A stretch of 4,336 bases of DNA from a virus (taxonomy: Duplodnaviria; Heunggongvirae; Uroviricota; Caudoviricetes): positions 1-4,336 of the IMG/VR virus record IMGVR_UViG_2690315922_000003. The stretch is one strand, 5' to 3'. Of the stretch, positions 1 to 757 are shown piece after piece. The position numbers and the translations under genes were made by a program. The notes beneath the pieces were generated by a model. That model did not search any database and was not told the origin of the DNA. It saw only the letters and a program-made list of their open reading frames with translations. Position 1 is the first letter of the stretch, and each line of letters begins with the position of its first letter.

Positions 1-212
1 GGGAAGCGGTATATGACGAGAACAGTAGCGCCGCGCCATTTGCTGAAATCATCGTGACGAAAAACCGTTTTGGCTCGCTTGGTACGGTTTACCAGCGGTT
101 CTGCAACGGGCACTTTGTTGCATGTGACCAGGATGAAGCCAGACAGATTTGCACAACATCAAATGCACCCGCTGCACGTGGCAGACGATATGCACAAGGG
201 GCTGACGTATGA
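1..212 (+). CDS. Replicative DNA helicase, DnaB-like, C-terminal fragment (5' end lies outside the window; reading frame begins at position 3)
   Basis: Frame-3 translation with no stop from the window edge to TGA 210-212: [33 protein letters not shown]... This matches the conserved DnaB C-terminal pattern (E. coli DnaB ends ...[30 protein letters not shown]...), recalled from memory. The stop overlaps the next ATG (ATGA at 209-212). Confidence 0.7.
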
Positions 213-478
213 ATAAAAAACAATTAGCCATTCTCGAAAAGGCATGGGATGCACAAATATCATGCGCTTTGAAAGAACAGGCACTACCAATAATCCAGAC
301 CAAATCGAAAATAGCCAGGCAGTTATGCGATGACGGATTCCTGAACGAAGTTGAGATTACGCACCAGATGGTAACGTTCAAAGGGTATGAGATAAATCAT
401 CATGGTATAGCGGCGTATTGCTCCCATCTTCCTGATGACGTTGACATTGATGAAATGGAAAGGGAGATGAAGCAATGA
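209..478 (+). CDS. Hypothetical phage protein, 89 aa, acidic C-terminus; unknown function
   Basis: ORF from the six-frame track. AAGGGG Shine-Dalgarno 7 nt upstream of ATG 209. Start overlaps the helicase stop and its own stop overlaps the next ATG (ATGA at 475-478). I do not recognise the family. Confidence 0.6.
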
Positions 479-558
479 CCATCTACATCACTGAGCTTGT
501 AACAGGCCTGCTGGTAATCGCAGGCCTTTTTATTTGGGGGAGGGTAAATCGTGGCTGA
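475..558 (+). CDS. Possible small hydrophobic peptide, 27 aa ([27 protein letters not shown]), one predicted transmembrane segment
   Basis: Not in the ORF track (too short); found by manual translation. ATG 475 overlaps the upstream stop; AGGGAG lies about 8 nt upstream. Its TGA 556-558 overlaps the GTG start of the next ORF. Hydrophobic core LVTGLLVIAGLFIW. Confidence 0.3.
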   Translation: MTIYITELVTGLLVIAGLFIWGRVNRG

Positions 559-757
559 GTTAATTTTCTCTGCATTGAGGATTCTCGGTGCTATGTGGAT
601 GGTGGCGACGTTCATTGTGGTTGCCAGCAGTTTTGTCCGGTTGGTAGGCGAAGGTAAAGACCTGGTGGGTGTGCTTTTCGGTAGCATTCTCCTATGGGTG
701 ATTATCGGTGTTATGCCTGTTGTTGTAGCAAAAATGGCGTGGCGTTTTGTTAGTTGA
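551..757 (+). CDS. Small membrane protein, 68 aa, two predicted transmembrane helices; GTG start
   Basis: ORF from the track. GTG at 551 is preceded by a strong GGGGGAGGG Shine-Dalgarno about 6 nt upstream. Two hydrophobic stretches (ILGAMWMVATFIVVASSFV and LVGVLFGSILLWVIIGVMPVVVA). The stop at 755-757 lies within a GAGGT Shine-Dalgarno for ninB. Confidence 0.5.
   Translation: MAELIFSALRILGAMWMVATFIVVASSFVRLVGEGKDLVGVLFGSILLWVIIGVMPVVVAKMAWRFVS

Follow-up and report, generated by a model that had tools for sequence, protein, structure and literature searches.

What occupies the stretch between the replicative helicase gene and ninB in this phage, and do its genes act as a unit? The window analyzed here, 4,336 nucleotides of a Caudoviricetes record, carries at positions 209 to 757 three short open reading frames that the initial annotation had described as a cassette of translationally coupled genes, two of them encoding small membrane proteins. 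Direct reading reproduced the three frames, all on the + strand, at 209-478 (89 aa, referred to as orf89), 475-558 (27 aa) and 551-757 (68 aa, with a GTG start, referred to as orf68). The stop/start overlaps that connect them are likewise present: one ATGA at 209-212, a second ATGA at 475-478, and GTGGCTGA at 551-558. The placement of this segment in the ren/ninA slot, between helicase and ninB, was also correct. On its upstream side is the 3' end of a DnaB-like replicative helicase gene (3-212, +; phrog_19, E=6.6e-9; phrog_11530, E=1e-31); the same segment carries the annotation 'replicative DNA helicase' in E. coli ET5, and its stop codon, TGA at 210-212, overlaps the ATG of orf89. On its downstream side is ninB (765-1211, +; Pfam NinB, E=2.3e-48), which encodes an Orf-family recombination mediator and is the first conserved nin gene past the variable slot. 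Rfam identified no family over the region, two tRNAs being its sole matches within the window.

Positions 209-757 are very probably the replication/ninB junction of a lambdoid pR operon, in which an island formed by the tR2 terminator and NinA lies between two independent slots, rather than a three-gene unit. That is, the supposed membrane-protein cassette is largely ordinary, and its core element, the lambda tR2 terminator, is already known.

The tR2 hairpin is found at 504-527 (+). Its 8-bp stem, with six G-C pairs, is formed by AGGCCTGC and GCAGGCCT and closes an 8-nt loop, TGGTAATC; the U-tract, TTTTTATTT, spans 527-535 (+). The hairpin was recovered both by a terminator scan, as an 8-bp stem followed by a T-run, and by RNA folding, and the U-tract was assigned from the terminator scan and from its match to the published tR2 oligonucleotide. 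Positions 501-534 of the window are identical at 34 of 34 nucleotides to this lambda oligonucleotide, aacaggcctgctggtaatcgcaggcctttttatt (TR2-cut; Li et al. 2016), and also to lambda 40593-40626, while the hairpin matches lambda 40596-40619 base for base. The element at 504-535 is the lambda tR2 intrinsic (Rho-independent) terminator, and termination at this site is predicted for the present phage. Lambda tR2 (40596-40627) is a widely used model terminator; it has the same hairpin, loop and U-tract, and it lies at the same site in the pR operon, upstream of the ninB-side genes. Here, too, the element sits within the pR operon with the helicase on its 5' side and ninB on its 3' side. The same island is found in the ren/ninB gap of lambda and in the 12/ninB gap of P22, and in a six-phage alignment the hairpin, the T-tract and GGGGGAG are invariant.

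The termination efficiency of lambda tR2 in vivo is about 0.9 (PMC4824070), and in lambda the terminator is overridden by N antitermination. RNA polymerase unmodified by the phage N antiterminator would be expected to stop at this point in the present phage as well, whose N and nut lie outside the window. The RNA-fold z-score of the 61-nt tR2 segment is unremarkable (-1.08). Among the loci compared, the stem is essentially invariant and no covariation was found; the lone stem variant, in Salmonella phage SI5, is an uncompensated mismatch. The functional support for the element therefore rests on its identity with the experimentally studied tR2 of lambda.

The terminator is part of an island of about 70 nt that is common to lambda, P22, HK022, HK620-type and Stx phages; the DNA to either side of it is mosaic. 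In a set of 129 loci, the major-allele frequency is 91-100% from -30 to +39 relative to the hairpin start, and drops to about 50-60% beyond about 10 nt outside the island; these loci were chosen by an exact match to the hairpin, so conservation at positions 0-31 is true by construction. At HK022-type loci the 5' part of the island, including the NinA ATG, has been replaced and the hairpin kept. The right end of the island is a Shine-Dalgarno element, GGGGGAGGG (536-544, +), which, according to the alignment, is used by orf68 here and by ninB in lambda and P22. At most junction types the next gene starts +13 to +16 past the 32-nt search pattern, and at +28/+29 in the case of a 71-aa gene. The junction can thus be mapped as a conserved island with sharp mosaic flanks, which parts two freely exchangeable accessory slots.

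The 27-aa frame within this island (475-558, +) had been regarded as an unassignable single-transmembrane peptide. It is the NinA ORF. Its product is identical at 26 of 27 residues (96%) to the annotated NinA of HK630 and falls in phrog_5907 (E=1.1e-18), and its equivalent in lambda is at 40567-40647. The frame shows the features of the NinA family, i.e., a length of 26-27 codons, the N-terminus MTIYITEL(I/V)TGLLVIAGLFIWGR, and an ATGA that overlaps the upstream stop, in this case that of orf89; its own stop, TGA at 556-558, overlaps the orf68 GTG at 551. In NinA of the lambda, P22 and HK620 type, the frame likewise opens with an ATGA that overlaps the preceding stop, and ends on a stop that overlaps the start of the next gene. 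Residues 1-23 match known NinA except at the polymorphic residue 9, and are 100% identical to P22 over that stretch. The C-terminal tail is determined by the downstream junction: it is VNRG here, the form seen whenever orf68 or a 108-aa gene follows, but GKS in lambda and GKT in P22.

Codons 10-21 of NinA are the tR2 hairpin and T-tract. The apparent transmembrane helix, GLLVIAGLFIW, is the translation of the GGCCTGC...GCAGGCC hairpin plus the U-tract. Because the hydrophobic core of NinA is encoded by the terminator, the segment contains one clear small membrane protein, orf68, and not the two that had been proposed. A hydrophobic mini-ORF that resembles a single-pass membrane peptide can therefore be a translated intrinsic terminator, with the GC stem giving G, L and A codons and the U-tract giving L, F and I codons, and small-ORF screens of phage genomes should check for terminators before calling micro-membrane proteins.

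Is NinA nonetheless translated? In published work the NinA AUG is located 30 bp upstream of tR2, with the terminator inside the NinA ORF; the initiation site is described as 'not weak', and translation from it cuts termination by only about 10% (Li et al. 2016). Taken together, the sequence patterns and these reporter data suggest that NinA is probably translated, as a link in a chain of ATGA overlaps that hands ribosomes from the upstream gene to the downstream gene. We consider it unlikely that NinA is instead a nominal ORF, i.e., that the terminator DNA or RNA alone is selected, the peptide is not produced in any meaningful amount, and the frame is a by-product. Such a by-product could explain why the hairpin, the U-tract and the Shine-Dalgarno element stay invariant while HK022-type phages swap the 5' half of the island; moreover, PGAP/RefSeq does not annotate NinA, and transcripts that end at tR2 leave its frame without a stop codon. 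Yet, whether ninB or one of seven unrelated genes comes next, the stop of the NinA frame overlaps or directly adjoins the following start codon in nearly every junction type, and the ATGA start is retained in 122 of the 129 loci. Substitutions in codons 2-10 also lean synonymous (7 of 12 distinct substitutions; p=0.017 to 0.066), and mutations of the NinA RBS or AUG in a reporter altered expression of the upstream gene, so the site does initiate (Li et al. 2016). A literature search for the NinA peptide string found no paper containing it, and the peptide is not listed in the Sakai Ribo-seq supplements.

Quite improbable, in our assessment, is a role of NinA as a functional micro-membrane protein, dual-coded with the terminator and with a task of its own in the inner membrane. 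It has a size common among the known small membrane proteins of E. coli, its 15-residue hydrophobic core has a KD value of 2.29, and both the conserved N-terminus, MTIYITEL(I/V/M)T, and the synonymous bias would be in line with such a role. However, the hairpin and the U-tract leave no freedom in the choice of the hydrophobic residues, the C-terminus varies freely with the downstream gene (GKS, VNRG, GKCG, VIGGFKK, GE and others), and HK022-type phages do without the N-terminus; in addition, plaque formation does not require the nin region (PMC10695390).

If the middle frame is NinA, do the genes on its two sides belong together? The upstream slot is occupied by ren in lambda and by orf89 here. 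In lambda and P22 the downstream slot is vacant, with ninB directly after tR2; in the present phage it holds orf68. In general, tR2 is directly followed either by ninB or by one of at least seven unrelated gene families, i.e., orf68 and at least six others. Searches with tblastn matched orf89 in 115 phage records, NinA in 386 and orf68 in 107. Among 96 loci with enough flanking sequence, orf68 followed tR2 behind ren in 5, behind orf89 in 2 and with neither of them upstream in 20; orf89 was seen both with and without orf68. A 3x3 contingency table of the two slots showed no association (Fisher p=0.31 and 0.14). The same picture emerged from synteny across lambdoid phages, each of which has a different layout: ST104 has orf89 and tR2, HK630 has tR2 and orf68, P22 has tR2 alone, and lambda has ren and tR2. 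HK022 is a further example of this free assortment. We had also considered a module inherited as a unit; with a Fisher p of 0.31, co-inheritance was not observed.

These distributions contradict the claim of a three-ORF cassette, and we regard as highly improbable the reading in which orf89, the 27-aa peptide and orf68 are coupled in translation to serve superinfection exclusion, abortive infection or anti-defence. In its favor are the genuine stop/start overlaps, the membrane-hairpin character of orf68, and the presence of ren, an anti-exclusion gene, in the lambda slot. All three are found together in about 55 of 393 phage records, most of them from Stx2a phages, but the majority of these are near-identical phages with consecutive accession numbers. 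Elsewhere the parts assort independently, and the middle 'gene' of the cassette is tR2/NinA, found in lambda and P22 without either neighbor; PADLOC gave no significant match. The ATGA overlaps, for their part, are general across the nin region (PMC8022706; bioRxiv 10.1101/2020.10.05.325894), and for the ninR region such stop/start overlaps have long been described as a 'chain of interlinked genes' (Kroger & Hobom 1982, cited in PMC4824070 and PMC10695390).

The occupant of the upstream slot, orf89 (209-478, +; phrog_2239), lies before tR2 in the position of ren. It is a real gene, with homologues down to 51% identity in which length and key residues are conserved. Its description as an acidic protein holds, in a mild form (pI 5.2; 15 D+E vs 10 K+R). 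The structural model of orf89 follows the order helix / helix / beta-hairpin wing and can be superposed on winged-helix domains of known structure, and a search of the solved-structure library returned only the generic winged-helix class. Compared with the MarR/PadR winged helix, however, orf89 shows an identity of 8-20%, an extended segment takes the place of the usual second helix in the tri-helical bundle, and the long dimerisation helices of MarR are absent. Because topoisomerase winged-helix domains score equally well, orf89 is assigned to the fold class only. No entry of a viral structure library matched at E<=0.001, the best match of a PDB sequence-profile search was not significant (E=0.14, CheF C-terminal domain), and no HTH family in Pfam or NCBIfam was matched; in PADLOC there was a sub-threshold match only (PDC-M53A, E=0.015, 12.6 bits). 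Lambda Ren shares the slot between the replication gene and tR2 and the same ATGA linkage, and is 96 aa long vs 89 aa for orf89. A homology between the two was nevertheless rejected, since alignment of the orf89 profile with Ren in hhalign yielded a probability of 0.3% and an E-value of 0.19 over 13 columns. The gene would be co-transcribed with the replication genes, and our best guess, a tentative one, is that it encodes a small DNA- or protein-binding regulator.

The occupant of the downstream slot, orf68 (551-757, +; phrog_1165, E=3.4e-36), is the first gene past tR2 and encodes a two-helix inner-membrane hairpin. This agrees with the original description as a two-helix membrane protein: the KD hydropathy profile has two hydrophobic segments, and the AF2 model is a helical hairpin (H2-33 and H38-67) with a pLDDT of 92. 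It, too, is a real gene. Homologues down to about 30% identity conserve its length and key residues, the conserved positions being W16, G35, D37, F43, W49, G53, P56, K61 and W64, and Salmonella variants have an ATG at the same start position. The family is tiny. A phmmer search of 1.84 billion representative proteins gave 16 matches, all unnamed, and a profile search of 5.8 billion proteins gave 232 clusters, all 'hypothetical'. Against the PDB, Foldseek gave nothing below E=3 for orf68, and a profile search gave no match. Upstream of distant orf68 homologues no recognizable terminator was found, so the linkage to tR2 is lineage-specific. On the opposite strand, an ORF at 400-798 (132 aa, TTG start) is taken to be spurious, since it is complementary to a hydrophobic gene.

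In its short length, two TM helices and tight polar turn, orf68 resembles T4 Imm, P22 SieB, lambda RexB and class II holins, but it lacks sequence or profile similarity to named families, and it lies in the early operon rather than in a lysis cassette or immunity region. An assignment as a class II or pinholin-type holin was rejected: the two TM helices would fit, but the gene is upstream of Q in the early operon, and no holin family was matched. In a related prophage, the lambda-family holin is located downstream of Q.

When would orf68 be expressed? The gene starts 15 nt past the U-tract of tR2, a strong terminator, and its Shine-Dalgarno element is the one used by ninB in lambda; orf68 is thus part of the repressed, N-dependent pR operon. 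A promoter scan of the window gave promoter-like matches that were no commoner than in shuffled sequence, with none above chance for orf68. Given this position directly after tR2 and the lack of a promoter signal above chance, orf68 should come only from N-antiterminated, lytic-phase transcripts, and this predicted timing argues against an exclusion role expressed in the lysogen. It is thus very unlikely that orf68 is a 'moron' exclusion or abortive-infection protein of the SieB, RexB or Cor kind, expressed in the lysogen to protect it. What such a protein would share with orf68 is its small two-TM architecture and its place in a variable accessory slot, whose other occupants, the phrog_5903 and DUF4752 proteins, are also membrane-anchored; yet orf68 has no terminator of its own, and neither PADLOC nor PHROGs offers a functional match. 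Possible, but held with little confidence, is our best guess that orf68, without being essential, modulates an inner-membrane target in the lytic phase and might act, for example, in the exclusion of competitor phages or in the evasion of membrane-acting abortive infection.

A broader reading of the junction, which we consider rather improbable, is that tR2/NinA has been selected as a 'translated terminator' joint, in which a short ORF reading through the hairpin would hand ribosomes from the gene on the replication side to whichever accessory gene is swapped in, while RNAs ending at tR2 without a stop codon would be marked for decay. The downstream slot, whose occupants include orf68, the DUF4752 protein and the TM-anchored phrog_5903 protein of 108 aa, would then be gated by N and rich in lytic membrane effectors. 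As part of this reading, orf68 might counter membrane-acting abortive-infection systems such as RexAB, in parallel to ren on the other side of the terminator.

The proposal that this segment contributes to exclusion, abortive infection or anti-defence received no positive support from PADLOC, NCBIfam or Pfam; PADLOC-DB had no match for NinA or orf68. The only families recovered for the three products, in scans of Pfam, NCBIfam, PADLOC and PHROGs, were PHROGs without an assigned function. The earlier statement that none of the three belongs to a known family thus holds insofar as orf89 and orf68 have no assignable function, but not as to family, all three being members of PHROG families. The sequence and structure comparisons proposed for orf89 and orf68 yielded no named relative, only a generic winged helix for the former and no PDB match for the latter. 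Nor was a defence match or an informative fold match obtained for either. An exclusion or anti-defence activity of either, if true, would be of moderate interest; nothing here indicates a specific activity. Both proteins are conserved and restricted to enterobacterial prophages, and within these they are widespread in E. coli and Salmonella, including the Stx2a phages of EHEC.

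The gene content of the window is typical of a lambdoid nin region. The end of a DnaB-like helicase gene (its 3' part, 3-212) precedes three short ORFs; then come ninB (765-1211), a Dam-type methylase, ninE, a 117-aa ORF (1911-2264), ninF, a second 89-aa ORF (2474-2743), YbcO, RusA, the Q antiterminator (3469-3987), tRNA-Asn (4050-4124) and tRNA-Thr (4130-4205). The positions that the initial annotation gave for the three short ORFs are exact, namely 209-478 (89 aa, referred to here as orf89), 475-558 (27 aa) and 551-757 (68 aa with a GTG start, referred to here as orf68), and the stop/start overlaps it described, ATGA at 209 and 475 and GTGGCTGA at 551-558, are all present.

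The 27-aa ORF had been described as an unassignable single-transmembrane peptide. As judged from sequence comparisons, it is NinA, and its core is tR2, the intrinsic terminator of the lambda pR operon. A tblastn search matched the peptide to 386 phage records; only its first 23 residues match in lambda, P22, ES18 and ST104. The match occupies the 73-bp gap between the end of ren (40570) and the start of ninB (40644) in lambda and, in P22, the gap that separates ninB from gene 12. At 504-535 a terminator scan identified AGGCCTGC-TGGTAATC-GCAGGCCT with a T-run after it. In an alignment of six phages the hairpin, the T-tract and the Shine-Dalgarno sequence GGGGGAG are invariant in all six, and the rest is mosaic. 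The same 27-codon ORF is annotated as NinA in HK630, with 26 of 27 residues identical, and ninA is listed in Casjens-lineage annotations of P22-like phages; PGAP/RefSeq prophage annotation leaves it uncalled. Because the ORF spans the terminator, the proposed transmembrane helix, GLLVIAGLFIW, is the translation of a GC-rich stem, a loop and a U-tract. The central element is already known and a textbook model terminator. The tR2 segment of the window is identical to the oligonucleotide used by Li et al. 2016, who place the start site of the 'NinA protein' 30 bp upstream of tR2 and its stop 16 bp downstream of the terminator, describe the initiation site as 'not weak', and report that NinA translation reduces termination by only about 10%. 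The sole tR2 variant seen is that of Salmonella phage SI5 (630-665 of the fetched locus), where a C-to-A substitution in the 3' arm disrupts the second stem base pair, without a compensating change.

To compare NinA across phages we used 129 loci, chosen as carrying the exact hairpin. Of these, 122 retain ATGA as the start and encode MTIYITEL(I/V/M)T, or something close to it, at the N-terminus. In the other seven, HK022 (2430-2500 of the fetched locus) and six similar loci, the hairpin, T-tract and Shine-Dalgarno sequence are retained, but the 5' half of NinA is replaced by unrelated sequence that lacks the ATGA start. Since these loci swap the 5' half yet keep the hairpin, it is the terminator that cannot be dispensed with. 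Codons 2-10 show 12 distinct substitutions, of which 7 are synonymous and the others conservative (binomial p=0.017 against all possible changes, 0.066 against transitions only). What follows the conserved segment is ninB or a gene from one of at least seven further families, unrelated to each other, and the stop in the NinA frame overlaps or adjoins the following start codon in nearly every junction type (ATGA, GTGA, GTGGCTGA or TAAATG). Such overlaps are an already described property of ninR, a 'chain of interlinked genes' (Kroger & Hobom 1982, as cited in PMC4824070 and PMC10695390). From the stop/start overlaps, the codon substitutions and the ATGA retention, we read NinA as a link in this chain, and it is probably translated. 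The 129-locus comparison gave no sign of a function for the peptide itself, whose C-terminus differs with every junction.

The initial annotation also proposed that the three ORFs form a cassette. Among 110 distinct contexts, however, high conservation is confined to a sharply bounded island, at 91-100% between -30 and +39 relative to the start of the hairpin, and drops to about 50-60% beyond about 10 nt outside it. We tabulated what flanks this island in 96 loci with enough flanking sequence. Where orf89 lies upstream, orf68 follows in 2 loci, ninB directly in 1 and another insert in 1; with ren upstream, these numbers are 5, 18 and 8, and with neither, 20, 27 and 14. No association with orf68 was detected in this table, either for orf89 (Fisher p=0.31) or for ren (p=0.14). 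Partial sets are found in ST104 (orf89, tR2, ninB), HK630 (tR2, orf68, ninB), P22 (tR2, ninB) and lambda (ren, tR2, ninB), and the complete trio is present in some 55 of 393 phage records, most of them from a run of Stx2a phages that are nearly identical. Thus, the slot contents assort freely, and the three ORFs are not a cassette.

The position right behind tR2 (536-560) is a variable accessory slot, in which the start codon mostly overlaps the NinA stop. Besides ninB and the orf68 family, it is occupied by a TM-anchored protein of 108 aa (phrog_5903), a 90-aa protein (DUF4752), 71-75-aa proteins (DUF7301), a 92-aa acidic protein (phrog_343), and proteins of 65 and 60 aa, all uncharacterised. 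It is rather unlikely that tR2/NinA is a selected 'translated terminator' joint feeding a slot that is gated by antitermination and serves membrane effectors of the lytic phase.

As for orf68 itself, it has two hydrophobic segments, and AlphaFold2 predicts a helical hairpin (residues 2-33 and 38-67, pLDDT 92); W16, G35, D37, F43, W49, G53, P56, K61 and W64 are conserved in homologues down to about 30% identity. The family, phrog_1165, has no assigned function and is very small (16 representatives among 1.84 billion proteins); a profile search returned 232 clusters (90% identity) from Escherichia and Salmonella, each of them labelled 'hypothetical'. Homologues are annotated inconsistently, with 52 aa from an internal ATG in HK630 (2546-2704 of the fetched locus) and 68 aa in HK022 and others. 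The 68-aa form is the correct one, because its first 14 residues are conserved and an ATG stands at the same position in Salmonella variants. In every locus that pairs both, orf68 is the first gene behind tR2. It starts 15 nt past our 32-nt search pattern, whose end lies in the T-tract, and relies on the GGGGGAG that serves ninB in lambda; a scan of the window found no promoter-like site above chance upstream of it. Because of this position, the shared Shine-Dalgarno sequence and the promoter result, we infer delayed-early expression of orf68 that depends on N antitermination; the protein would be made in lytic growth and not in the lysogen. Its earlier description as a two-helix membrane protein holds; the proposed role in prophage-encoded exclusion or abortive infection is weakened by the predicted lytic-only expression, and our best guess is a lytic-phase membrane role. 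Before distant orf68 homologues no terminator was recognisable, though they lie in the same operon region.

Turning to orf89, it belongs to phrog_2239, also without assigned function, and its homologues form 25 clusters whose named sources are all Enterobacterales (Escherichia, Salmonella, Erwinia, Enterobacter, Intestinirhabdus, Pseudescherichia and a Cronobacter phage). The preceding gene may be of lambda-P type, of P22 gp12 type or, in TL-2011a, one for a 797-aa protein; since the replication gene differs between phages, orf89 is not tied to one replication module. AlphaFold2 models it confidently (pLDDT 91.8), with one long helix at the N-terminus and two helices at the C-terminus, plus a short helix and a beta-hairpin wing. 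Comparison with lambda Ren revealed no relationship, and neither a viral structure library nor a PDB sequence search added anything. Only a fold class can be assigned to orf89; our best guess for its role is a small DNA- or protein-binding regulator. Both orf89 and orf68 are real, conserved proteins that match only PHROG families without a function, and there is no hint of a novel type of system; the whole nin region is dispensable for plaque formation (PMC10695390). The initial annotation is best regarded as having seen the ORFs correctly, while misreading a terminator and proposing a cassette for which there is no support.

Elsewhere in the window, a minus-strand ORF (400-798, 132 aa, TTG start) lies antisense to NinA and orf68, and is most likely a spurious frame, the complement of a hydrophobic gene. 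The 117-aa ORF and the second 89-aa ORF have no Pfam match; the former has a conserved 'hypothetical protein' counterpart in HK630 and VT1-Sakai. A promoter-like site (TTGACA, 18-nt spacer, CATACT) at 3965-3994 overlaps the 3' end of Q, and downstream of it, at about 4008-4052, is an imperfect hairpin with a T-run, GGCTTTTTTATTTGGG, that resembles the tR2 tail. Together with the two tRNAs these elements (3965-4205) are probably a pR'/late-operon leader with phage tRNAs.

Finally, 15 of the 20 species-representative genomes that carry the exact tR2 hairpin are from unrelated taxa, including Pseudomonas, Oceanobacillus, Bradyrhizobium, Psychrobacter, Shewanella, Nocardioides and Paenibacillus. 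Across the whole overlap with lambda, the contigs concerned show 99.8-100% identity; several are ~48.4-48.5 kb long or at ~1x coverage, and they look like contamination of public assemblies by lambda control DNA.
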